From a virus, in IMG/VR virus record IMGVR_UViG_3300012009_000091, positions 64,001 to 128,000 of that record: 64,000 bases of DNA; one strand, 5' to 3'. The position numbers and the translations under genes are program-made. Positions 7,579-28,748 of this stretch are shown piece by piece. Numbering within the stretch: the stretch's first letter is position 1; each line of letters begins with the position of its first letter. The notes below the pieces were generated by a model. The model searched no databases and was not told the origin of the DNA. It was given only the letters and a program-made list of their open reading frames with translations.

Positions 7579-8653
7579 ATCCCTTCTCGGGTTCGGCCGG
7601 GGTACGGTTGATGATACGTTCACAGGTGCCGCTGGGTTAGGTTCTCTAGCCATGTCTGGGTGGTCTCCGTTGAAAGCCTGGACACATCCTCTATACTACA
7701 GCGCAATGGGTCGCTCACCGACAGCGGCGTTGAAGGGGTACGGTACCACCAAACGGCGTCTGTTAGGGTTGCCTGAACCGCGGTCACAGTCCAATCGACA
7801 GCAGTTTCGGAAAACGGGGGAGGAGAGTTCCATGCAGAAGACAGCGCTGGGAAGATTAGTCAGAAAGGCCAAGAATTGGTTGGCACCAGAACTCGGCACT
7901 CTTGCGCGACAAGCAGCTGATCCCGGCCGTCGTACTCTCCGTCCGTCTCTTCGAGCTCCTCTTGCTGTAGCTGGCCTTTCCGCTGCTGCGTATGGAGGCG
8001 CGCAAGGATTAGGATACTTGGGCGATCAAGCTAGTGTAATCGGGCGAGCGCGTGGGTATCGTCAGTTGATGAAAAAGTATGGACCGGAGCTTCACGCGAT
8101 TGCTGAGCAGACACATGTGCCTGTACCTGAAGAGCGGATGCGTGATGTTTATAACGCTCTCTACAAGATGTCTCCAGATGTTGCGAAAGAGCCGACTCTC
8201 GCTGCAGCTCAAATGGCGCCGCTTATTCGTGAAGCTGGTTCTCCGAGTGGGACTATGGAGGGGGCGGAGGGGCCTGTTCCTCGTGTTATGTTGGAGGGGG
8301 GATTGGAACAAATGGCTGTTCCATCTCGTATCCAGTCTGGGATGCCAGACTCGTTTGCGGACCGTACTCAACCATGGGTACGCAGTGCAGTCGGCGCTTT
8401 TGGGGACTACGACTTAAACACGGCGGCCCAACGTGAGATGATGAGAGCTGAGTTTCAGCAACCTGATTTGAAAGCCAAAAGTGACTTGGCGGCTGATCTG
8501 AGTTCGTTGGGTCGTCGACGTATGGAATTGCAAGCTCTCTATCGACAGAAGGCGGATGCTCTGAGAGCTGGAAACCAGACGGCTATTCAAGCTCTTGAAT
8601 CGCGGATTCGCCAACTTCGCACAGGTAGACCAGAGGCAGCGTCGAGGATTTGA
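7556..8653 (+). CDS. putative internal virion (ejected) protein
   Basis: Gly/Ala-rich hydrophobic segments; MQKTA motif at an internal in-frame start (7832) with a strong RBS. Confidence 0.55.
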   Translation: MPALDTAKSLLGFGRGTVDDTFTGAAGLGSLAMSGWSPLKAWTHPLYYSAMGRSPTAALKGYGTTKRRLLGLPEPRSQSNRQQFRKTGEESSMQKTALGRLVRKAKNWLAPELGTLARQAADPGRRTLRPSLRAPLAVAGLSAAAYGGAQGLGYLGDQASVIGRARGYRQLMKKYGPELHAIAEQTHVPVPEERMRDVYNALYKMSPDVAKEPTLAAAQMAPLIREAGSPSGTMEGAEGPVPRVMLEGGLEQMAVPSRIQSGMPDSFADRTQPWVRSAVGAFGDYDLNTAAQREMMRAEFQQPDLKAKSDLAADLSSLGRRRMELQALYRQKADALRAGNQTAIQALESRIRQLRTGRPEAASRI

Positions 8654-11340
8654 TGGAGAAGTTCATCAAAATAGGCGCCAGCTCAGGGGGCCATTGGGAC
8701 TCATTTTACCACATCATGCGCGGAGATCGTGCGGACATGGTGAAATGGGCGGCTGCTGGAAGTTATCATCCACGTATCGAAAGATACCTTGCGACAGAGC
8801 CTTTTACTCGTCGTGACCTCGTGCTCGTCGTGGTTCCTTTAGGAGCTCATGAGGCTTGGGGCTGTAATGTCAATGGAGATGCATTCCAGCAAGAGCAGAT
8901 TGAGCCGGCTCATCGAGATTGGGGTCACGAGAGTTTCGTCCATCACGCCAATGCGTTTGTTCATCATCAGAACAAAGATCCACAGAAAGGATTCGGAAAA
9001 GTACCTATTGCGGTATTTGAACCCGTGATGCGGAGAATCGAAGCCGTCTTCAAGCTTGACCGAGACAAGGCGGATCGTGTCGGGGCTGGCACCTATGTCC
9101 GAAAGCTCGATGAGGGGGGGTCAGCTGATCTCAGCATGGGGTGTTTTCCGGCTGGCACGCTCGTTACTATGGCGGACGGTACTCAGAAACCAATCGAGAC
9201 GGTAGTGGTGGGGGATCTGGTTCTGACGAGTACAGGTCGAGCGCAGCGTGTAACGTCATTACACCCTCGTGAGTACGAGGGGCCACTACTGCGCATCAAA
9301 GTTTTTGGGCAGATAGAAGTGCGAGTTACTCCCGAACACCCGTTTTGGGCCACCCCCCGATCTTCGGTGATCAAAAATCGACGTTGGGTAGGAAAGGAGG
9401 ACGGCGCTCAGTGGGTACACGCAAAGTGTTTGCAGGAAGGGGATTATCTCACCACTCCCGTACTCCAAGAGGTTCTGACTCCGTCATATGCGTCACCTGC
9501 GCTGGCGCGACTGCTAGGATACTACCTCGCTGAGGGTCACGTACTCTATAATAAAAAAGGTGAGTACGTCGGCATCGAGCTGGCTGTAAATCGGATGGAC
9601 GCAGTGCTGGACGAGATCGAAAGCCTGTGTCGTGATTTCGGGTCCAGAAACGCGCCAGCTATCCGTCCACGCACAAATTCCAAACACGCGTTGGCAATTC
9701 AGATATTCGACCCACACTTGGCGGAGCTTTGTTTCAACCACTGTGGGAGTTACGCACGCCACAAGCGACTATCCGAAGATGTCATGTGGTGGGATCCAGA
9801 GTTGCAGCGACAATTGATTGGGGCCTACATTAATGGGGACGGGGGACAGTTGGAATCATGGCAACCTGGGGCTGTGGTCCTCTCCACGTTATCTGATCAT
9901 CTCGCCGCGCAGATCCCGCAGCTTCTCTTTCGTTGTGGCGTCAAATCCAACACTCAGTTGTTACGACATGAATCCGGAGGTGGATTCAATAGCAGTGCCA
10001 CCTTTGAACACCAGATCTACATCGGGAAACATCAAGTTCCGTCGTTGTTGGATGTAGCGCGTCTCAAAATGCCAGAACTGAGTCGTGATACGAACCCTGG
10101 GGCAAAGTTGGAAGGCGGCCTTGTCTTCTCGAAACTCCGAGAGATTTCCACGGAGTTTTTTCAAGGTACGGTATTCAACTTCGAGGTGGAAGAAGACGAG
10201 TCGTATGTGGTGGAGGGCCTAGCTGTACACAATTGCAAGGTGCCCTATGACATTTGTTCCATTTGCGGCCAGGAGTCTAAGTCTGTCGCGAATTATTGTA
10301 CCTGTCTCAAAGATGAGATGTTGAAGATCGAACCGGATGGTCGGATTCACTGTGCCTATAATCCTCGTCCTCGATTCTTCGATCTCAGCATTGTTATTGT
10401 TCGGGCAGCTAAAGAAGCTGCCATCCTAGAAAAGGCCGCGGCAGCGGGTATGGTCATGGATCAGAAAGACCCAGTAGATTGGACGACATCTTCCTTTTCA
10501 TTGGATGATGATTCTGGTCTTTATTTGACTAAAGCCGCCAGCGCGAAGGAAGCTGACACCAAACTAGCGGAAATCGAGAAGAAGCTCCCTGAAGTCTTCC
10601 ATGAGATGGTCTGGCCGATGATACGTTCTGAGGAGGCTCTCCCTGAGAGTCTTATGGATCGGTTGTCGGATCATACTCTCCCTAAAAGTCTGGCCTCTAC
10701 TTCTGCTTGTGGGATTGTCCTTCGCCCGCGTGAGTTCCAGCGTTTGTATCTTAGGCGAACAGGGCGCCCAGAAATGGCTGAGGAATTACACAAAAAGCGG
10801 TGTATTTTTTCTCCGCGTGATAGTCGCCATGCTTATCGTCTCCAATCGGATGACATAGAAGAGAAGATTCTCCCCTTGTTACACGATCTCCTCCCGAAGA
10901 GGAGCGTGTTCCAGCCGTTTGTGAGTAAGCGCATTATCATTGTTCGTCTTCGCGGGGAGAGGCCGACTGAACCAGAACTTGTAGAAAAAACCAGTGAGGC
11001 CCTTGACGAAGTCGGAGAAGAGTACGCAAAATATATCAACGGTCTGGCTCGCTTGCCATCTCTGCTTAAATCTGCGATGGTACGACATGGAGATCTTTAT
11101 GATGCATTTGCGGCAGAATCATATGACCCGATGCGAAAGGTCGCCGGATCTCTTGCATCTATCGTTGGGGCTGGTGTTGGTGTCGTATTGCCGGTATACT
11201 TGATGGCGTCAAAGTGGCGTGCAGATGCGACTCGTGGATATGATCCGGGACTACTTAAGGGAATTGTGGCTGATTACCCCGCCACAACATCCATTGGGGT
11301 GTTGACAGGCCTGCGTTATTTGGGCAAAAGAGGGAAGTGA
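8653..11340 (+). CDS. prohead (capsid maturation) serine protease, intein-containing, with long C-terminal extension
   Basis: NGDAF, FVHHQN and SMG motifs; predicted spliced junction SMG-CKVPYDICSICG; located upstream of the capsid genes. Confidence 0.75.
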   Translation: MEKFIKIGASSGGHWDSFYHIMRGDRADMVKWAAAGSYHPRIERYLATEPFTRRDLVLVVVPLGAHEAWGCNVNGDAFQQEQIEPAHRDWGHESFVHHANAFVHHQNKDPQKGFGKVPIAVFEPVMRRIEAVFKLDRDKADRVGAGTYVRKLDEGGSADLSMGCFPAGTLVTMADGTQKPIETVVVGDLVLTSTGRAQRVTSLHPREYEGPLLRIKVFGQIEVRVTPEHPFWATPRSSVIKNRRWVGKEDGAQWVHAKCLQEGDYLTTPVLQEVLTPSYASPALARLLGYYLAEGHVLYNKKGEYVGIELAVNRMDAVLDEIESLCRDFGSRNAPAIRPRTNSKHALAIQIFDPHLAELCFNHCGSYARHKRLSEDVMWWDPELQRQLIGAYINGDGGQLESWQPGAVVLSTLSDHLAAQIPQLLFRCGVKSNTQLLRHESGGGFNSSATFEHQIYIGKHQVPSLLDVARLKMPELSRDTNPGAKLEGGLVFSKLREISTEFFQGTVFNFEVEEDESYVVEGLAVHNCKVPYDICSICGQESKSVANYCTCLKDEMLKIEPDGRIHCAYNPRPRFFDLSIVIVRAAKEAAILEKAAAAGMVMDQKDPVDWTTSSFSLDDDSGLYLTKAASAKEADTKLAEIEKKLPEVFHEMVWPMIRSEEALPESLMDRLSDHTLPKSLASTSACGIVLRPREFQRLYLRRTGRPEMAEELHKKRCIFSPRDSRHAYRLQSDDIEEKILPLLHDLLPKRSVFQPFVSKRIIIVRLRGERPTEPELVEKTSEALDEVGEEYAKYINGLARLPSLLKSAMVRHGDLYDAFAAESYDPMRKVAGSLASIVGAGVGVVLPVYLMASKWRADATRGYDPGLLKGIVADYPATTSIGVLTGLRYLGKRGK
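9142..10233 (+). mobile_element. intein with LAGLIDADG homing endonuclease (364 aa)
   Basis: Block A CFPAGTLVTMADG, block B VTPEHPF, endonuclease blocks LLGYYLAEG and LIGAYINGDG, block F/G VFNFEVEEDESYVVEGLAVHN followed by +1 Cys. Confidence 0.95.
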
Positions 11341-18494: not shown

Positions 18495-19406
18495 GTGTTG
18501 GTCGTTCGGGACATTCGAGTACGCAGCCTCAGCGTAGACTACGCTCATGTCATCTGGCAGATCGAACCGACCACTGAAGACCTCTCTCTTTACAACTTCT
18601 ATGTTCTTCGGTCTGGAGGACAAGAAGGTCCATATGAAACAGTAAGTAGTCCTCTCGTTGATACGTACGTTTGGCGTGATAATTGGAGCCAGGATGTACG
18701 TGCGTGGGGAGGCCATTACTACCGTATTCTCGTCGAGCATCGGGGTACGGGAGAGACTCAAGAGTTCGGTCAACGAACGCCAGAAGAAGTAACTGAAGGC
18801 CACGCAATCGGTGGTGTTTCTTATTTACCGGAACCCACGCCCATTGGACGGGAGATTTCGCGTCGACAGGATCTGGTCAATCGGATTTATGCTGGGAGAG
18901 ACTATTTGATCTTTCAGCGACGTGTGTTCGGACAACGTTGTCCTACGTGTTGGGATCCGATTCAACGTCAAATGTCAGAGAGCCGATGTAAAACCTGTTT
19001 CGGTTCTTCCTTTGTAGGAGGCTACTACCGTCCCATACAGGTTGCTCTTAGTAAGTCCGTGGCGCCTCGAGTAGATGATCTCGGGCCGATGAAAAAACAG
19101 TCGGAGGCCGTGAGTTTTCGTTTAGCAAGCTTTCCAGAGATCAAACCAGGCGATATGATAGTGGAAGTGTTAGGCAACCGAAGGTGGCGTGTGAACCAGG
19201 TCGTTCCGTCATATGTGCAAGGTGCCTTAGTTAGTCAACAGTTGGTAGGTGCATTGATCATCAAGTCCGATATCGAGTACTCTGTACCTGTGAGGGGGAT
19301 CGACCCGATTCGGTTCGAAGCCATTGCAGCGCACCACTACGAGGGTGCAGTGAATACTGAGTCGCAAATCGAAATACGAAATCGTCGCGATCCCCTGGAG
19401 GTGTAA
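18495..19406 (+). CDS. putative neck/head-completion protein with Zn-binding motif
   Basis: Fn3-like N-terminus; CPTC...CKTCFGSSFVGGY; C-terminal IKPGDMIVE...RWRV beta-barrel pattern. Confidence 0.55.
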   Translation: MLVVRDIRVRSLSVDYAHVIWQIEPTTEDLSLYNFYVLRSGGQEGPYETVSSPLVDTYVWRDNWSQDVRAWGGHYYRILVEHRGTGETQEFGQRTPEEVTEGHAIGGVSYLPEPTPIGREISRRQDLVNRIYAGRDYLIFQRRVFGQRCPTCWDPIQRQMSESRCKTCFGSSFVGGYYRPIQVALSKSVAPRVDDLGPMKKQSEAVSFRLASFPEIKPGDMIVEVLGNRRWRVNQVVPSYVQGALVSQQLVGALIIKSDIEYSVPVRGIDPIRFEAIAAHHYEGAVNTESQIEIRNRRDPLEV

Positions 19407-20093: not shown

Positions 20094-20876
20094 ATGAGCA
20101 CGATTAACCAACAGGTCCTTTATGGCAATTTCCAAAGTGAGACTCTTCAAGCCATCATTGAAGAGTATCGGCGGATTCGTCCAGACGATGACCTGCCTAG
20201 CGACGCCATTCTCAACACTACATTGATTTTTCTTCGTTCCTTGTTCTTTCTCCTCCCCGCTGATTACTCGTATCGGTGGGAAGGGGATGTCTACGGCGAG
20301 ATGGATGAAGCGGCTTCTGGTATTTGGATTGAAGCTGAACCTGATATCCACTCAGAGAAAATCGAAGTCCGCCCTGCTATCCTCCTAAGTTTAGACGGGC
20401 GTAAGTTCAGCGGTTTGCATTTGGACCAGTTCAAATACCACAGCCTCTTACGCGATGCATATACTCAACACGATCTCATCATGGGATCTCTTCGGACAGA
20501 CGTCATCTCGCGTCATTCAAAGGAGTGTCGGCGCCTCGCTGATTGGATCGGATTGGCGTATCGGCTTTTGGTACGTTATCTGACGTTTGACAGGTTTCAT
20601 TCAATCCACCCTGAGATTGGCTGGACGCCAGTCGGATCTGCAGGGGAAAAAGTTCGAGGGACATCTACATACGAATACCGAATGGCCTCTGTCGTCTTCA
20701 AATATAGTTGGGGATGGACGGGACGAACTGAGCTCAAACCAGATGTACCAGGGTCCTCGAAATGGACTCACCATATCGTCTCTTATGGTACCCCAGTCCT
20801 TGACGGGGGTCCTGATGATGATGGTATAGTCGAGCGTGACAAGGTCACGCACATCCTTGAGGTGGAAGACGAATAA
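20094..20876 (+). CDS. putative tail completion/terminator protein
   Basis: 260 aa ORF directly upstream of, and coupled to, the sheath gene. Confidence 0.5.
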   Translation: MSTINQQVLYGNFQSETLQAIIEEYRRIRPDDDLPSDAILNTTLIFLRSLFFLLPADYSYRWEGDVYGEMDEAASGIWIEAEPDIHSEKIEVRPAILLSLDGRKFSGLHLDQFKYHSLLRDAYTQHDLIMGSLRTDVISRHSKECRRLADWIGLAYRLLVRYLTFDRFHSIHPEIGWTPVGSAGEKVRGTSTYEYRMASVVFKYSWGWTGRTELKPDVPGSSKWTHHIVSYGTPVLDGGPDDDGIVERDKVTHILEVEDE

Positions 20877-23578
20877 TGGCTACGATAGCACCAGCAATCA
20901 GAGAACCTTCAGTCGATATCTTTCAGCAGGTTGCTCCGACTGCCACGCCGGCGGCGGTTGTTGGCATGAGCCCCTGTTGTGTGGCTCCGAACTATCAGGT
21001 TGTTCGGGCTCAAGATGACGACGGAAATTTCCGTTCAGCAGCTCTCATGGGAACCTATGAGGATCTGGATGAAACCATCACGTATGCCGTTCCATCTTTG
21101 GAAGATGGGGCTACGTTGGATGATGACAGTCTTCGTGTGTGGTTGAAGATCGGTTCGACCGATCAAGAGCTCGACGGTGAGAGCGATGAAGCGGTCGTTG
21201 TCAGTAGCGAAGCCGATTCGGTTGCGATCAATGGCAGTGAGTTCGATTTGACTGATGCCATTCAGGACTTCGTCGGTAGTGGTGTTCTAGCTAGTCAAGC
21301 GATCAGCGGTTCGGACTATGTTGTTCGGATGCTTGGCACAGATCTACAAACGAGGGACTTCCCCATCACCAATGTTGCGTCTACGGTCTTGACCGTCAGT
21401 CGGGACGCCGAGGGGTACGCGCCTTTACAGGGTGTGCCGCCGGCAACGGATGAGTATGAAGTCATTCTCAATCCGACCAAGTTCGTTGTGAATGCGGCAG
21501 CCATTTCATCTCAGCTTCGAGTTGATACGGAAACCGCCACGCTAACGATTCCTGGAGCAGCCACTCCGAATGGGGATCTGTTATACACTGCGGTTTTGGC
21601 AGGAAACGACGGCAATCAGATCACGGTCGAACATGTCGACGGGGGTGCTGGGTATACACCAATCCTCGTTGAGGTGACGAACTATGTCATCAAAGTGACG
21701 TTCGATGCCTCTGCTGATGATGCTTCGGACATTCGAGATGCTGTGCTGGCTCATGCACAGGCCCCTTTGTTGGTCACTCCGTCGATCAATGTAGACGGGC
21801 TCAGTACAGCAGCCGCTGCTGCTAATCTGACCGGCGGCAGTCACGTCATCTACTCGGCTCCAACAGGGGGTACGGCTGGAGACATCAAGCGGATCCGATA
21901 TGCGGACGGAGGGGCATTGGCGCTGTCGCTCGTCGGAAATGATCTGACGATCACATTGAATACAGGCACCACCACCGACGAAGACATTCGAGATGCCATT
22001 GAGGATCCGCTTGATCCAGCCTACGACTCCACAGTCAATGCCTGGATTAACGCACAGCACTATGGAGGGATAGCAACTCCTGAGGCCGCCGATCTACCCA
22101 ACTACACGAATCTGTCCGGCGGACAAGACGCGGACAGCGTCACTTTGGACGGTAATCTCATCGGCCAGGCGGGTATCAGTGCCAACGTGTATGTGGAATA
22201 TCGGGCGTTGAGACTGGTGTATACAGCCAGTGCTTCAATGGCGACGACGGGAAATAATCCTCGTCTGGTCCAGGCGAACAACCTCACGACCCTCGAGGAG
22301 GTAGTCGGTGAATTTTCCACCGATAATCCTCTTGGTCTGATGATGTATTACGCTCTCCTCAATTTCCCCGGTGGCGCTGTTTATGGGTTGGGGGTGGATG
22401 AGGTTAGCGAGTCGTATCCAGATGGAACCGATGCCGCATGGCAACGAGCTGCTGATTTCATGATCTCTCAGATGCCGTACTTCATGGCGATTGGTTCGCA
22501 ACGCGATGTGGTTCATGACATTTGGGTCAATCACATCAACCTCATGAATGGTGATGGTGTGTCGACAGCTGCTCGAACCGAGCGGTTCTTGTTCATCAAC
22601 AAAGAGACCCCGACCATGAGCCCCGATAGTCTATTGGGGAATGGGGATGATCTGACTGGGTCTGCCGGCACCTATCTCGCCAGCGAGAACTTTTATCTTC
22701 TCGGCGTGGCTGAAGACGACATCCTCGTAGTGGAGGATGGAAGTACGGGACCATATACTCTTCAGAACGGTCTGAAGGGGTACTATTGCAATGCGGCAGC
22801 GGTAGGGAGTCCTTACCAGCTTACTATCAAAGATCCAACGCCTTTGGCGTATCCCAATTTGGCAAGCGATACAAATTGGGCGATCTACAATCCTGGTAGT
22901 GCCCTTCAAACGGCCGGTGTGTGGGACAAAAATCTGATGGCGGAGACTGTCAATCAGTTGGCACAACAAATCTCGAATCGGAAAGTGTCGTACACATTTC
23001 CGGACAATGTGACCGTCACTATCGATGGGGCGGAACAGAGCATTGCCGGGTATTACCGGGACGCCATGCAGATCGGCCAATGTGCAGCTCAGCCGCCACA
23101 ACAATCCAAGTATCGACAATCGCTCACTGGAGCCGAGAGTCTGCGGTTCTCTGGAGACTTCTTCACCGGAGATCAACTGGATCTCATCCAGGGAGGCGGC
23201 GTGTGGGTGTATTATCAGCCTATCCCCAACGGAGCGGTGGTAACGCGACACTCCCTCACTACGGATGTCAGTAACGCGCTTACCCGGAATCCCACTTGCA
23301 GCTGGCAAGTGGACAAGTACTGTCGTGCGGTCCGAACGACCACCCAACGATCACTTGGACCGCCTATCACTCCTGCGCTTCTCTCGAACATCGGAGTGAA
23401 AATCGAAGCAGTCGGACGCTTTTCTGTCGAAAAGGGACAGTTGGCTAGCGCCGGTGTGGATTCCATCGAACAAGGAGATGGGGTCACTGCGGATTACGAC
23501 GAAATCGTGGTCCGCGGAGAGGCCAGTCCGCTGTTACCTAATAATGGTATCAAATACTACGTGGCCATCTCAGCGTAA
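20876..23578 (+). CDS. contractile tail sheath protein
   Basis: 900 aa; nested beta-domain insertions closing in NLTGG/NLSGG; sheath-like C-terminus (GGGVWV...TRHSLTT...PLLPNNGIKYYV); followed by a tube-like gene. Confidence 0.75.
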   Translation: MATIAPAIREPSVDIFQQVAPTATPAAVVGMSPCCVAPNYQVVRAQDDDGNFRSAALMGTYEDLDETITYAVPSLEDGATLDDDSLRVWLKIGSTDQELDGESDEAVVVSSEADSVAINGSEFDLTDAIQDFVGSGVLASQAISGSDYVVRMLGTDLQTRDFPITNVASTVLTVSRDAEGYAPLQGVPPATDEYEVILNPTKFVVNAAAISSQLRVDTETATLTIPGAATPNGDLLYTAVLAGNDGNQITVEHVDGGAGYTPILVEVTNYVIKVTFDASADDASDIRDAVLAHAQAPLLVTPSINVDGLSTAAAAANLTGGSHVIYSAPTGGTAGDIKRIRYADGGALALSLVGNDLTITLNTGTTTDEDIRDAIEDPLDPAYDSTVNAWINAQHYGGIATPEAADLPNYTNLSGGQDADSVTLDGNLIGQAGISANVYVEYRALRLVYTASASMATTGNNPRLVQANNLTTLEEVVGEFSTDNPLGLMMYYALLNFPGGAVYGLGVDEVSESYPDGTDAAWQRAADFMISQMPYFMAIGSQRDVVHDIWVNHINLMNGDGVSTAARTERFLFINKETPTMSPDSLLGNGDDLTGSAGTYLASENFYLLGVAEDDILVVEDGSTGPYTLQNGLKGYYCNAAAVGSPYQLTIKDPTPLAYPNLASDTNWAIYNPGSALQTAGVWDKNLMAETVNQLAQQISNRKVSYTFPDNVTVTIDGAEQSIAGYYRDAMQIGQCAAQPPQQSKYRQSLTGAESLRFSGDFFTGDQLDLIQGGGVWVYYQPIPNGAVVTRHSLTTDVSNALTRNPTCSWQVDKYCRAVRTTTQRSLGPPITPALLSNIGVKIEAVGRFSVEKGQLASAGVDSIEQGDGVTADYDEIVVRGEASPLLPNNGIKYYVAISA

Positions 23579-25293: not shown

Positions 25294-25701
25294 GTGGCCA
25301 ATACCGACGCGCTCATGCGGAAATTAGCAGCTGCTGCTCTTGAGAAGTCTGCCTTTACTCCCACTGAGACGGATTTCTGGGCAGCGGCTGCTGGTCCTCC
25401 TGGGGCAGCTTTGTCTGCGCCGGAAGGGCAAGGTACGGTCTCTCTGTTGGGATCTCTTGCCGGTCTGGGAGCGGGCTACTTTCTGGGCAAGAAACTCCAA
25501 CCTACTCTGGCGCGTCGTATGGGAACGAGGCTCGGTGGACTCCTTAGTCGCTATCCACAATATGTAGGTATGGCTGGGGGTTCTTTACTCGGAGCTCGAC
25601 TTGCTCGTAAAGCCCTCGCAGCTCGGGATGTTGAGGACCTAAGCCAGCAGTACGCGCAATATCGTTATGGACCGCCCAACCACTATGGCCCGCCCGGTTG
25701 A
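25294..25701 (+). CDS. putative internal virion protein with glycine zippers
   Basis: KLAAAALEKSA leader followed by LLGSLAGLGAG and GMAGGSLLG. Confidence 0.55.
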   Translation: MANTDALMRKLAAAALEKSAFTPTETDFWAAAAGPPGAALSAPEGQGTVSLLGSLAGLGAGYFLGKKLQPTLARRMGTRLGGLLSRYPQYVGMAGGSLLGARLARKALAARDVEDLSQQYAQYRYGPPNHYGPPG

Positions 25702-26006
25702 ATGATCGGAAACTGACCCATATCGAATTTCCACATTGTATCATGGGGTCCTGGATAGAGGGTCCAGAGTCCTGCACGCTTGCCCACGATGGCCAGTATA
25801 TTGTCGTCCTGCGGGTTCAAGCCGGCTTCAAGGGCTAAGACTCGAATTGATTTCCCGGAGACGATTTGGAGCCTATTCTGAAGCGTCTCGACGAGATCCT
25901 CCGGCACTGGATCTTCGGGAAGAATGGCGAAGCGGTTAGGACCAACATGGTAGATCTTACCATGTTGTCCTGTTTGCACCCACGGGTGTGTACGTAGCCA
26001 GTTCAT
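25683..26006 (-). CDS. hypothetical protein
   Basis: Globular-looking 107 aa from ATG 26006; the upstream part of ORF 25683..26225 looks spurious. Confidence 0.45.
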   Translation of the reverse strand: MNWLRTHPWVQTGQHGKIYHVGPNRFAILPEDPVPEDLVETLQNRLQIVSGKSIRVLALEAGLNPQDDNILAIVGKRAGLWTLYPGPHDTMWKFDMGQFPIIQPGGP

Positions 26007-26031
26007 GTGAGAAGAATATCCGATAGAGGCT

Positions 26032-26056
26032 AAAAAGACCAGTTTGGGCTGGCCTT
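26032..26056 (-). terminator. intrinsic terminator
   Basis: Minus strand AAGGCCAG-CCCAAA-CTGGTCTT followed by TTTAGC, after the stop at 26069. Confidence 0.65.
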
Positions 26057-26068
26057 GGTAGGTAGGTA

Positions 26069-26245
26069 TTAGGGGCGGGACAGGGCTCTCCTGATCCCCG
26101 TCAGAGTAGCAGGTGGAGATGGCACCCGCGCTACCTGTCTTCCCTCGAGGAAGACGAGGATGTGGGTGCCGTCTTGCACTACTATGACCCGCTGACCGCG
26201 GATCTTGCGGGCCCAGCCCGCCCACTGAATTTTTTTACCTTCCAT
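26069..26245 (-). CDS. small hypothetical protein (58 aa, not in the ORF track)
   Basis: MEGKKIQWAGWARKIRG...; GAGGA RBS, GTATAAG upstream, terminator downstream. Confidence 0.65.
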   Translation of the reverse strand: MEGKKIQWAGWARKIRGQRVIVVQDGTHILVFLEGRQVARVPSPPATLTGIRRALSRP

Positions 26246-26276
26246 GGTATTTTCCTCTCTCTAGTCTTTATATATC

Positions 26277-26283
26277 CTTATAC
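26277..26283 (-). promoter_or_regulatory. GTATAAG promoter-like motif
   Basis: Overlaps the TAA stop of 26278..26760; upstream of the start at 26245. Confidence 0.55.
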
Positions 26284-26760
26284 GACTTGCTGGATGTATT
26301 CGATGGGCGGCTCATGGTAAATGTTCCAGTGGTATAACAGCCGTTGTTTGTCTGCCATCCGTGGATTTTTCAACCGACCAGGATACCGACCGTCTCGTAC
26401 CCAAGCTTCCATCAATTCACGGGCAACTAGGATAACACCTGGTTCGTTCTCCAGCTCTTCTTCTGCCTCTTGGACAGCCTGGACGATTGTCGGGGTCAAT
26501 ACGTATTGAACTCGATGGATGGAGAACATCTTTGTGTTGTCCACTTCAGATTTCTTGCCGAGGGATAGCGCAATGCGGCGCTCTCGAGATACTCCAGGAA
26601 CAGTGATCCATTGTCCTGTTGCCAAGTCTTGTTTGTTGAAGCGGTATGAATGCTCCGAACTGAAGTTGGCAATCCAGAATCCCGCGCGTGTGCCGTTGTC
26701 TCGATTTTCCCTTACGCTCATATCTACCCAAATTTTGGGCATTTGATCTAGAGGTCTCAT
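26278..26760 (-). CDS. hypothetical protein
   Basis: 160 aa; AAGGAG RBS; GTATAAG upstream. Confidence 0.65.
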   Translation of the reverse strand: MRPLDQMPKIWVDMSVRENRDNGTRAGFWIANFSSEHSYRFNKQDLATGQWITVPGVSRERRIALSLGKKSEVDNTKMFSIHRVQYVLTPTIVQAVQEAEEELENEPGVILVARELMEAWVRDGRYPGRLKNPRMADKQRLLYHWNIYHEPPIEYIQQVV

Positions 26761-26798
26761 TTCTATTCTCCTTTGTATTAGATGCGGACCGTCTTTGA

Positions 26799-26805
26799 CT
26801 TATAC
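26799..26805 (-). promoter_or_regulatory. GTATAAG promoter-like motif
   Basis: Directly follows a hairpin+TTAG element; upstream of the start at 26760. Confidence 0.6.
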
Positions 26806-26808
26806 TAA

Positions 26809-26833
26809 GAGGGAAGGGAAAATCCCTTCCCCC
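26809..26833 (-). terminator. terminator-like hairpin
   Basis: Minus strand GGGGGAAGGGA-TTT-TCCCTTCCCTC then TTAG. Confidence 0.55.
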
Positions 26834-26838
26834 TACGG

Positions 26839-26940
26839 GAGGAAACTACCACGCTGCTGACGAGCTTGAGTCGCACAATATGCGTCTCAATATGCTCAAG
26901 CCAACAGCGTTCTAGTTTCCTCGATGCTTGTCCTTGCGTG
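26839..26940 (-). ncRNA. candidate rod-shaped small RNA (family unknown)
   Basis: Nested stems GAGGAAACTA/TAGTTTCCTC, ACGCTGTTG/CAGCAGCGT and GCTTGAG/CTCAAGC; own GTATAAG motif and a downstream hairpin. Confidence 0.55.
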
Positions 26941-26947
26941 CTACCTA

Positions 26948-26954
26948 CTTATAC
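26948..26954 (-). promoter_or_regulatory. GTATAAG promoter-like motif
   Basis: Part of the 13-bp direct repeat CCTACTTATACCA (26944 and 27135). Confidence 0.6.
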
Positions 26955-26966
26955 CATAGTAGCTAA

Positions 26967-27127
26967 CACGTCGGGAGGGGGACTCCCCCCAGGGTCCGCT
27001 CGGACCATCCCGGTGGCCGCGGAAAGCTTTGCAGCTGAGCGAACCTTAGTCTAGGGTTTTGCCGTTCATAACGACCGCATCCCCGAGCCGCACCGGGTCG
27101 GTAATCGGTACTCACTCCTCCCGAGTG
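26967..27127 (-). ncRNA. candidate multibranch structured RNA, about 160 nt (family unknown)
   Basis: 5'/3' closing stem CACTCGGGAGG/CCTCCCGACGTG, inner long stem, several hairpins including a GCAA tetraloop; starts just after a GTATAAG motif. Confidence 0.6.
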
Positions 27128-27138
27128 ATTTCACCCTA

Positions 27139-27145
27139 CTTATAC
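27139..27145 (-). promoter_or_regulatory. GTATAAG promoter-like motif
   Basis: 12 nt upstream of the closing stem of the candidate RNA. Confidence 0.6.
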
Positions 27146-27160
27146 CACGGTGAGATGTGT

Positions 27161-27397
27161 TCAAAGTTTGTCAATTAGAATCCGTGTCAAGACCCACCCG
27201 CGCCAGCTGGCATCGTGGGATGTCTCGATGTTCTCATCCCACCCTATATTGATCTCTTCATGGCATCGAGGGCAGGTAATCACCGTTGAATGTCCTGGTT
27301 CTTTCCCAAATCCCCAATGGTCGTGGAAGGATTGCATGCACGAAGGACATGTGAACTCGTCTGTCGGATAGGAGATTGTCACATGTTTATGCATCAA
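27161..27397 (-). CDS. Zn-ribbon small protein
   Basis: CPSC...CPRC. Confidence 0.6.
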   Translation of the reverse strand: MMHKHVTISYPTDEFTCPSCMQSFHDHWGFGKEPGHSTVITCPRCHEEINIGWDENIETSHDASWRGWVLTRILIDKL

Positions 27398-27725
27398 TCC
27401 CCGCGGAGAAGTCTTCGGCTTCTTCTTCGGTCTGTTGCATCTCTTGGATCACTTGTTCTTCATCTTTTTTCGCGGGCGGAGGTGGAGAATTTTTGACCAT
27501 CTCATAGAATACCATGAGCGCATTCCGAATGATGTGACTCTCGTTTCGTGCATTGGTGTTTGCTAACAGTTCACACAGAGCTTGATGTTCCATCTCGTTC
27601 AACGTAATTGTCATTGAGTAGGGATGTTGTCCTCGCTGCTTTTTCTTCTTCATCTCTTGTCGTCGACGTTTGAGTTTTCTCTTCGCGCCAGGTGGAGGGG
27701 CAGTGTGGGTGTTGTTCTCTGTCAT
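27387..27725 (-). CDS. ribbon-helix-helix-like DNA-binding protein
   Basis: SMTITLNEMEHQAL...NESHIIRNAL CopG-like pattern; AAGGAG RBS. Confidence 0.55.
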   Translation of the reverse strand: MTENNTHTAPPPGAKRKLKRRRQEMKKKKQRGQHPYSMTITLNEMEHQALCELLANTNARNESHIIRNALMVFYEMVKNSPPPPAKKDEEQVIQEMQQTEEEAEDFSAGIDA

Positions 27726-27823
27726 TGATCTACTCTCCTTCTTTGTGGTGTGGAGGGGCGGTAAAGGATAGACGTGTCTTACCTTTCACTTCTTATCCCT
27801 CTTACTCCAACGTCACCTTGACT

Positions 27824-28117
27824 TCACTTCTTAGCTCGTAGATTGTCATTCACTTCCGGCGGAGGGCCAGATACCATCTGTGGCCACCCTCCGGTTTTGA
27901 TGTACCAGTAGATGAGATTGCGAACAATTACCTCGGGCGCGATCTTCTCTCTCAATTCGATCCCTAAATCCTTCGCTTCTTTGTTCAGTCGGTGGGCATG
28001 TGAACGTAGTGCCCTCTCCCAACGGTGGGGAATGGGGACCTGTAAATCGAGTGTAAAAACCTCTTCAGTGTGTCTGATCGGCCCCAATAGTATGATATCT
28101 TCCGCTGAGTTCCTCAT
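27824..28117 (-). CDS. hypothetical protein, possibly ribbon-helix-helix
   Basis: LQVPIP strand followed by two helices. Confidence 0.45.
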   Translation of the reverse strand: MRNSAEDIILLGPIRHTEEVFTLDLQVPIPHRWERALRSHAHRLNKEAKDLGIELREKIAPEVIVRNLIYWYIKTGGWPQMVSGPPPEVNDNLRAKK

Positions 28118-28219
28118 GAGTGTAAGATACTCTTACAGTGAGCTTTACACAAGTCTGGAAAGTTCGCTTTGCGCCTAATTGAGATGCTTTTACAGGTAAT
28201 TTTACACAGAGGTTTACAC
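28041..28219. repeat. cluster of TTTACA(C) half-sites and a TGTAAGA-N3-TCTTACA palindrome
   Basis: Copies at about 28041, 28051, 28144, 28189, 28201 and 28213; palindrome at 28121-28137; at the minus/plus strand switch. Confidence 0.5.
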
Positions 28220-28231
28220 CACAGTTTATGT

Positions 28232-28238
28232 GTATAAG
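28232..28238 (+). promoter_or_regulatory. GTATAAG promoter-like motif
   Basis: Heads the plus-strand accessory region. Confidence 0.6.
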
Positions 28239-28334
28239 GCGGATGTTGAACGCCGGCTTGTGTTGCCTGCTTGGCAGCCGGATCCCCGGCGTTCTTCTTT
28301 ATCATGTAGACCAGTAAATCAAAGGAGAACATTG

Positions 28335-28748
28335 ATGGATGCAAGTACGACATTGGCCGTTACAGCTACGTTTGTACCCCCTGAGCGGGTACTGTCCCTT
28401 TTCCGAGCGGACGGGGTGGTGGTTCTTCATGGACTTTATATTGTCTCGCACGGAGGCAAGGCCAGAGGACCAGTGCAGTTGACTGTGGGAGATACGGAAA
28501 TCCTCTCTTCATCACAAGATCATCGGTGGGGTAATCATGAGCAGGTCAATGCCTGCTCTCCCGTACTGGTGTTAGATCAAGCTGAGATTATTTTCCGTAC
28601 GGAGTCTAGCACGTTGACCAGTACCACTTTCACCGTTCTCGCGTTGTACTCCCCGACGTCCGCGAAAGCGCGGCTGGTTAGGGTACCGCTTGAACCCACC
28701 AGACCTAAGCCTGATCCAGAGAAGGCAAGACGATTGCTTAGTCGCTAA
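28335..28748 (+). CDS. hypothetical protein
   Basis: AAGGAG RBS; beta-rich. Confidence 0.6.
   Translation: MDASTTLAVTATFVPPERVLSLFRADGVVVLHGLYIVSHGGKARGPVQLTVGDTEILSSSQDHRWGNHEQVNACSPVLVLDQAEIIFRTESSTLTSTTFTVLALYSPTSAKARLVRVPLEPTRPKPDPEKARRLLSR

Follow-up and report, generated by a model that had tools for sequence, protein, structure and literature searches.

Evidence for a new family of structured RNA in large uncultivated phages

The locus and its setting

The window analysed here, a stretch of 64,000 nucleotides, covers bases 64001-128000 of a complete virus record of 167,069 bp with direct terminal repeats, which encodes a large terminase, a major head protein, a 900-aa sheath-like protein, ThyX and a helicase. 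A DNA similarity search against deposited phages found no close relative of this record. Between a plus-strand structural block and a plus-strand replication/nucleotide block lies a short minus-strand cassette (about 25683-28353), which holds the RNA element described below (Table 1); the element occurs once in the 167-kb genome (model R2, 131.5 bits for the window copy). ARAGORN detected no tRNA or tmRNA gene in the whole genome of this phage. Elsewhere in the window, an 896-aa protein (8650-11340, plus strand) carries an intein with Hint plus LAGLIDADG domains, an arrangement also found in L007, one of the related contigs introduced below.

The element occupies about 175 nt of 62% G+C DNA between two copies of a promoter-like box, GGTATAAGTAGG, which is found exactly twice in the window, the second copy at 26944-26955. 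Behind this second copy stands another unit (26806-26954, minus strand), which consists of a long irregular hairpin and a 12-bp terminator-like hairpin ending in UCUUAG and folds with a minimum free energy (MFE) of -74.8 kcal/mol (z -8.15); a third GTATAAG box overlaps its end, before the next gene. At the end of the cassette is a conserved 107-aa gene, whose true start is Met74 of a 180-aa open reading frame (25683-26225). In the window this gene has a GTATAAGG box of its own at 26283, and a hairpin followed by UUUAGCC is seen about 30 nt before its start codon. The protein belongs to a small family with no fewer than 11 distinct members, all of them encoded on phage-like contigs; its AF2 model is confident (pLDDT 91.7), and structure searches matched it only weakly to winged-helix-like folds (Foldseek E 0.18 or worse; VIA Z 5.0 or lower).

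Table 1. Coordinates of the features at the locus, with the loop 6-mers of the four full copies
Feature	Position in window	Strand	Remarks
Promoter-like box GGTATAAGTAGG	27135..27146	-	-10-only type, no -35; P1 begins 12 nt after GTATAAG
Structured RNA, family member W	26962..27131	-	~165-170 nt from likely start to UUAGC; ends placed by motifs only
P1, 5' strand	27117..27127	-	pairs with 26967-26978; pair probability 0.97-0.99; 7/12 pairs doubly changed
P2 hairpin	27088..27108	-	3-bp stem 27108-27106/27090-27088; 15-nt loop L2; 6-mer 27097-27092 pairs with L6
P3 hairpin	27061..27075	-	strands 27075-27070/27066-27061; in three of four copies; 100% of cells paired; one pair doubly changed
Conserved AAAA and P3a, 5' strand	27051..27060	-	P3a 27056-27051 pairs with 26992-26987; AACCC invariant in four copies
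P4, 5' strand	27037..27045	-	pairs with 26993-27001; pair probability 0.99; 5/9 pairs doubly changed; 97% of cells paired
P5 hairpin, GNRA tetraloop (GCAA)	27025..27036	-	4/5 pairs doubly changed
P6 hairpin	27003..27018	-	loop L6 27014-27007; 6-mer 27014-27009 pairs with L2; stem 100% paired
Alternative hairpin P7 (G5/C5)	26977..26989	-	26989-26985/26981-26977; excludes P3a, overlaps inner end of P1
P1, 3' strand	26967..26978	-	C26970 bulged; UUAGC directly after
UUAGC unit-end motif	26962..26966	-	(G)UUAGC after P1 in W, L004, L007, L015
Conserved 107-aa gene	25683..26006	-	closes operon in every relative; tblastn and alignments
L2/L6 6-mers, window			CCCGGU / ACCGGG
L2/L6 6-mers, L004			CCACAU / GUGUGG
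L2/L6 6-mers, L007			CCUUGC / GCAAGG
L2/L6 6-mers, L021			CCGCGU / GCGCGG

A non-coding element outside the known RNA families

The original prediction, made from the letters of this DNA alone, had described a non-coding multibranch RNA on the minus strand that is not a tRNA and belongs to no family its author could name. No open frame runs through the element, as stops interrupt all six frames in all four copies now available. A small protein-coding gene was considered and rejected, because the frames are closed in all four copies and the indels among them are not multiples of three.

Rfam 15 at its gathering threshold gave no match in the window or in five relative loci, except for tRNA and tmRNA elsewhere in L007, and even at E values up to 10 nothing was reported on the element in any of its four copies. 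ARAGORN likewise found no cloverleaf or tRNA-like domain in it. On these empty searches both a known RNA family and a tRNA or tmRNA identity were rejected, in agreement with what had been read from the sequence. Nothing like a toxin-antitoxin pair or a known ribozyme core came to light, and the earlier guesses at a role (protein decoy, antitoxin mimic, ribozyme-like RNA) are neither strengthened nor weakened.

Folding energy, which the original prediction had named as a check, went against it. The element has an MFE of -75.2 kcal/mol, with z-scores against dinucleotide shuffles of -1.31 for the minus strand and -1.75 for the plus strand, and the copies of two relatives are equally unremarkable (L004 -0.8, L007 -1.1). 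If energy, Rfam and ARAGORN were all that could be consulted, the finding would fail. However, an energy-based z-score is uninformative for sequence this rich in G+C, and an unremarkable value is compatible with a real RNA; here the energy is overruled by covariation among homologs, to which we now turn.

Related copies and conserved synteny

Relatives of the locus were traced by the 900-aa sheath-like protein and then by the family of the conserved 107-aa gene. The adjacent 160-aa protein has no homologue among 5.8 billion proteins, and the 900-aa protein gave no close relatives in IMG/VR; a word-index protein search then gave relatives. One of them (L003) is 89% identical in the 900-aa protein, on a contig that ends short of the locus, and several others are 51-53% identical. 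Two contigs, L004 (JGI) and L007 (Logan), carry the same cassette after their structural genes, and in both a GTATAAGTA box stands in the intergenic DNA ahead of about 190 nt of GC-rich sequence, which shares with the window element an AAAACCC run, a G5-AG run and the GUUAGC at its end. A search with the 107-aa protein family added L021, a fourth full copy directly upstream of the conserved gene, and L015, a partial copy comprising the last 32 nt of the RNA (1-32) at a contig end. Neither nhmmer nor blastn matched the window element to the relatives' loci; the homology of the copies is visible only to a structure-aware search.

The synteny is exact. Read along the RNA strand, it runs from the box through the RNA and one variable small gene to the gene of about 107 aa that closes the cassette, in genomes whose proteins are only 40-53% identical. 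The first gene downstream of the RNA varies by genome (106 aa, 85/88 aa, none, 160 aa). In L004, L007, L015 and L021 the RNA forms a 5' leader, with a gene start 15-60 nt further on and no promoter between the two. The 107-aa gene is also present without the RNA, in L022 and L016, and no upstream RNA was seen in L016 or L020.

Several further observations were made at these loci. In L022 (3322-3495, plus strand) a different multibranch RNA of about 170 nt fills the same slot before the operon of the conserved gene. This RNA, too, follows the box, is closed by a stem, contains a GUAA hairpin and ends in CUUAGC; it was rejected as a member of the family, since it matches neither model R1 nor model R2. 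Within a few kb of the RNA, L007 has a full tmRNA gene (21979-22344, plus strand; Rfam 183 bits; tag ANDGNYAMAQAA) and three or four tRNA genes (19144-19217, 20583-20655, 20936-21017). An apparent tRNA of L007 (about 18560-18800, minus strand), called by neither ARAGORN nor Rfam, seems to be interrupted by about 170 nt inserted behind the anticodon stem, with the 5' acceptor and D arm and the 3' T arm and acceptor recognisable. Upstream of its RNA, L007 also has a further unit of about 280 nt, with a promoter at one end and UUAGC at the other (16450-16170, minus strand), and a hydrophobic mini-ORF of 17 codons with its own box and terminator (16128-16020, minus strand). The Logan contig of L015 breaks inside the RNA, and the contig of L003 ends before the locus is reached; it may be that this GC-rich structured region and its surroundings are prone to assembly breaks.

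Fold of the RNA

Drawn by manual comparison of the copies, the model has seven helices and a loop-loop contact, a well-defined fold for only four sequences. P1 pairs the 5' end with the 3' end, so that the released RNA has closed ends. According to the model, P1, P3a and P4 form a rod, at whose base P2 and, in most copies, P3 branch off, with P5 and P6 at its tip. P2 carries a loop of 13-15 nt across copies, P3 is missing from L021, and an extra hairpin occurs only in L004 and L007, at the site of a 5-nt bulge in the window copy. In P3a a conserved CCC-N-R-G that follows the AAAA run pairs with C-Y-N-GGG, and positions 4 and 5 of the helix covary (U-G/G-U/G-C and A-U/G-C). The long-range helix P4 (9-10 bp) has a wholly different sequence in each copy.

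Much of this architecture had been anticipated. The closing stem drawn in the original prediction is P1, now supported by three homologous copies; the GTCGTT/AACGGC hairpin is P3, which comparison also supports; and the hairpin AGCT-GCAA-AGCT is P5, whose GNRA loop is kept in four of four copies, each time on a different stem. The pairing of CCCGGT with ACCGGG covaries in all four copies, although it is not the nested helix that had been drawn. The two strands lie in the loops of P2 and P6, where they would form a tertiary 6-bp kissing contact (L2-L6), and the pairing of these six L2 bases is predicted to lock the shape of the RNA.

Of the eight helices proposed, these four hold, three are wrong, and one competes with a helix of the fold. 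The extension of that helix as a long pairing of GGCTCGGGGA with TTTCCGCGGCC is not supported by comparison with the copies. GGTCC and GGACC are not partners, as GGTC(C) is the 3' strand of P6 and GGACC the end of the P4 3' strand, and the supposed hairpin of AACC with GGTT dissolves in the same way, AACC belonging to the conserved AAAACCC run ahead of P3a and GGTT forming the start of P4.

The GGGGG/CCCCC hairpin, here called P7, has a more ambiguous standing. It can form in four of four copies, but it competes with the covarying P3a and has no compensatory change of its own, and its outer pairs are broken in the window copy. P3a is kept there by double changes (A-U, U-G), and RNAalifold picks it over P7. 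Constrained folding nevertheless puts the forced P3a and P7 folds only 1-3 kcal/mol apart in W, L004 and L007. In the gene-coupled copies P7 has 6-8 bp and a deep overlap with P1, whereas in the window copy it has 5 bp and a 2-nt overlap.

Comparative support for the structure

For covariance model R1 no copies but those of L004 and L007 were used, and the loop-loop pairs were left out; the model was searched against 174 kb of DNA. It finds the window copy (26960-27131, minus strand) with 34.7 bits and an E value of 4e-9, L021 with 44.5 bits and an E value of 4e-12, and the L015 fragment with 26.7 bits. As a negative control, 61 pattern-matched loci from prokaryote genomes reach at most 16.5 bits. 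Across the four full copies, standard pairs occupy 93.2% of the pair cells, against 73.1% when partners are shuffled and 36-47% when they are slid, and 28 of the 51 pairs are changed on both sides, values that none of 500 shuffles reaches on any measure; these counts come from only four copies in an alignment fitted to the model, which favours the model. RNAalifold arrives at this set of helices too, its covariation term being -8.2 kcal/mol. The doubly changed pairs amount to covariation in homologs, which the original prediction had named as a check.

The kissing contact, which lies outside the covariance model, behaves like the helices. L2 and L6 are complementary in four of four copies, with four different central triplets (Table 1); 95.5% of the contact is paired, and three of its six pairs are doubly changed. 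In shuffles within the loops, the chance of a 6-bp match is 0.02-0.2 per copy, which combines to about 0.002 by Fisher's method. The helices and the loop contact were drawn from three copies before L021 was fetched, and L021 fits them. As to the strand, about 15 G-U cells would become A-C on the opposite strand, which fixes the minus strand as the one from which the RNA is read, as had been proposed.

One may argue that the element is no functional RNA, being either a GC-rich spacer with chance pairings or an element that acts at the level of DNA, and the modest z-scores of W, L004 and L007 would fit such an origin. Yet this is hardly credible in view of the significant model matches to sequences left out of the model, the 28 doubly changed pairs, the G-U pairs, which on the opposite strand would read A-C, and a synteny conserved among genomes with such divergent proteins. 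We therefore hold with high confidence that the element is genuine, a structured RNA that is conserved among the copies and belongs to a new family.

Promoter-like boxes and unit ends

The box in front of the element had been noted as a promoter-like motif of its own, and it recurs in the relatives, with a GTATAAGTA box ahead of the RNA in L004 and L007 and the variant GTACAAGTA in L021; the form in the relatives is GTATAAGTA(R)GTAG, and P1 begins 5-12 nt after the box across copies. The genome has 32 GTATAAG sites, most of them intergenic and co-oriented with genes, with an A preferred 5-6 nt downstream and a -35 element in none. No sigma-70-type promoter is predicted on the strand of the RNA.

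At the other end, no intrinsic terminator (GC-rich hairpin plus U tract) was found on the minus strand between 25600 and 28400. The TTAGC end, likened by the original prediction to the terminators, does find company in the genome, in that UUAG follows several strong hairpins (e.g. at 26808, 32597, 37151, 45220, 46638 and 52785), often just before the next GTATAAG box. L021 ends in AUUAAC instead of UUAGC. By a crude test UUAG is about 1.4-fold enriched over background after strong hairpins, and after perfect stems it was observed 12 times against 7.6 expected. TTAG lies within 30 nt upstream of 10 of the 32 GTATAAG boxes, and it is rare in the genome, with 487 sites against 1915 for TTGA. Since this enrichment is modest, we keep UUAGC as a recurrent motif and not as a proven signal; judged from such sequence patterns, it is likely to mark termination or processing.

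Possible roles of the RNA

The best reading, which we hold tentatively and at somewhat less than even confidence, is a stand-alone gene for a stable RNA. This compact non-coding RNA would be transcribed from the minus strand by a phage-specific, -10-only promoter of the GTATAAGTA type, and it would work in trans, as an RNA in its own right. Its conserved unpaired nucleotides, namely the AAAA before P3a, the GGAG-containing junction between P3a and P1 and the UAU that starts L2, could offer a surface for a partner. In the relatives the RNA would be the first part of an operon transcript, freed by termination or cleavage at UUAGC, and in the phage of the window it may have turned into a separate unit. 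The 107-aa protein is the only recurrent candidate for a partner of the RNA, and a host factor is equally possible.

The window copy argues for a stand-alone RNA. This copy lies between two identical promoter boxes and is cut off from the next gene by the second promoter, by the neighbouring hairpin RNA (z = -8) with its terminator, and by the third promoter, and every one of its helices is kept through compensatory changes of its own; the conserved 107-aa gene, moreover, has its separate box. The locus in the relatives holds other promoter-bounded structured RNAs as well, with the tRNA and tmRNA genes of L007 close by, and the synteny with the 107-aa gene also speaks for this reading. Against it stand the modest enrichment of UUAG, the AUUAAC end of L021, the weakness of the winged-helix matches, the presence of the 107-aa gene in L022 and L016 where this RNA is missing, the leader position in L004, L007, L015 and L021, and the near-isoenergetic P7, which overlaps P1 and P3a as an expression platform would.

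These last two observations are what a cis-acting leader switch would predict, be it riboswitch-like, attenuator-like or a protein-binding operator, and we regard such a switch as possible, though rather doubtful. With P1 and P3a fully formed, a long stem would stand before UUAGC and the transcript would be stopped or cut there; with P7 formed, the inner part of the P1 3' strand and the P3a 3' strand would be taken up, P1 would be weakened, and polymerase would read into the operon. Either a ligand or the winged-helix-like protein of the operon would choose between the folds. A gene start follows within 15-60 nt, promoter-free, in four of the five copies, and the linkage to an operon that ends in the 107-aa gene is conserved. 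The small energy difference between the two folds in W, L004 and L007 also fits, as does the finding that P7 is longer and reaches deeper into P1 in the gene-coupled copies than in the uncoupled copy of the window, and the conserved junction nucleotides resemble a binding pocket. However, the window copy keeps its whole core even though three promoters and a strong terminator bypass it, and the first downstream gene is different in every genome. In addition, P7 shows no compensatory change and has lost its outer pairs in the window copy, G-rich and C-rich strands pair promiscuously, so that the alternative fold may be incidental, and a canonical intrinsic terminator is absent.

Preservation of the window copy despite the terminators after it would also be explained if the RNA were a processive antiterminator of the HK022 put type, in which the nascent RNA binds polymerase and would here override the hairpin-UUAG stops. 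The cassette is crowded with terminator-like hairpins, and the RNA stands at its head with a strong promoter directly in front, which would suit this role. Yet the downstream genes in the window have promoters of their own, and a put RNA is about three times smaller than the window RNA and far less elaborate, which makes this role quite improbable.

The L2-L6 contact raises another matter, as covariation is blind to whether two strands belong to one molecule or to two. The 6-bp complementarity, which covaries in four copies, could thus join separate molecules into a dimer or a ring, as the loops of phi29 pRNA do; ROOL offers a precedent (PMC12286853), and the gene adjoins the head/tail module and in L007 lies a few kb from tRNA and tmRNA genes. 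Nevertheless, an intramolecular contact looks sterically plausible, Rfam gives no match to pRNA, ROOL or GOLLD at E values up to 10, and the phage is a 167-kb, sheath-bearing one with a large terminase and not phi29-like; we consider self-assembly by this contact very improbable. The bolder proposals, that the RNA is either a miniature 'ornate' RNA assembling itself into a ring or cage, or the aptamer of an undescribed riboswitch class that senses the state of the host, are taken together unlikely.

Distribution and significance

A pattern scan of IMG/VR returned only the record of L004, one of the JGI metagenomes returned that record and two chance matches, and one of the GTDB genomes returned 61 chance matches, none of which passed the model. 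The family is known from four full copies and one partial, all in a single sparsely sampled clade of large phages, which are distantly related, uncultivated and 150-170 kb in size. It is a new RNA family that matches no described one and is seen only in this rare clade.

Structured phage RNAs are few, and most have no known function. At 150-195 nt, and with a clear promoter and end, RNAs of this family are small enough for probing, crystallography or cryo-EM. The locus also gives a view of how transcription units are marked in a clade that has hardly been studied, with -10-only GTATAAG promoters and hairpin-UUAG unit ends. Should the RNA be a ligand sensor, a self-assembling RNA or one half of a ribonucleoprotein with the co-conserved small protein, it would represent a new class; should it be only a stable leader, it would be a modest addition to the catalogue.

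Comparison with known systems

The stable RNAs C and D of T4 (species 1 and 2) are small, stable, structured RNAs of unknown function that lie among small-RNA genes. The family described here can be likened to them by description only, and the T4 RNAs, unlike it, are processed from a tRNA cluster transcript.

Riboswitch aptamers that a loop-loop contact locks, such as those for lysine and cobalamin, share with the family a 5'-leader position (in most copies), an end-joining P1, a multi-helix core, a kissing loop and a GNRA loop, and the conserved junction nucleotides and competing 3' hairpin of the new RNA extend the likeness. In contrast to riboswitches, it matches no known class, its downstream genes are unconserved, and the window copy is uncoupled from genes; moreover, it has neither a U-tract terminator nor a helix that sequesters a Shine-Dalgarno sequence.

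In ROOL, a covarying kissing loop was first read as tertiary and proved to be quaternary, that is, intermolecular (PMC12286853, which also cites the pRNA of phi29). Like the new family, the ornate RNAs ROOL and GOLLD are carried by phages and prophages and have no known function; they often lie close to tRNA genes, and kissing loops together with A-minor contacts stabilise them. They differ from it in length (about 600-800 nt against 150-195 nt here) and show no sequence or structure match to it, and the phage of the window lacks any tRNA.

The packaging RNA (pRNA) of phi29 (RF00044), which binds the portal and is needed for DNA packaging, is a phage RNA with paired ends, a multi-way junction and two loops of covarying complementarity, in a sequence that drifts. 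The window RNA has no match to RF00044 at E values up to 10, its genome is a 167-kb, sheath-bearing one with a large terminase and not that of a 20-kb, protein-primed podovirus, and the new RNA, unlike pRNA, is transcribed with a cassette of small genes. What the two have in common, as a resemblance only, is a length of about 120-174 nt, a stem that joins the ends, a multi-way junction, and two complementary loops that covary.
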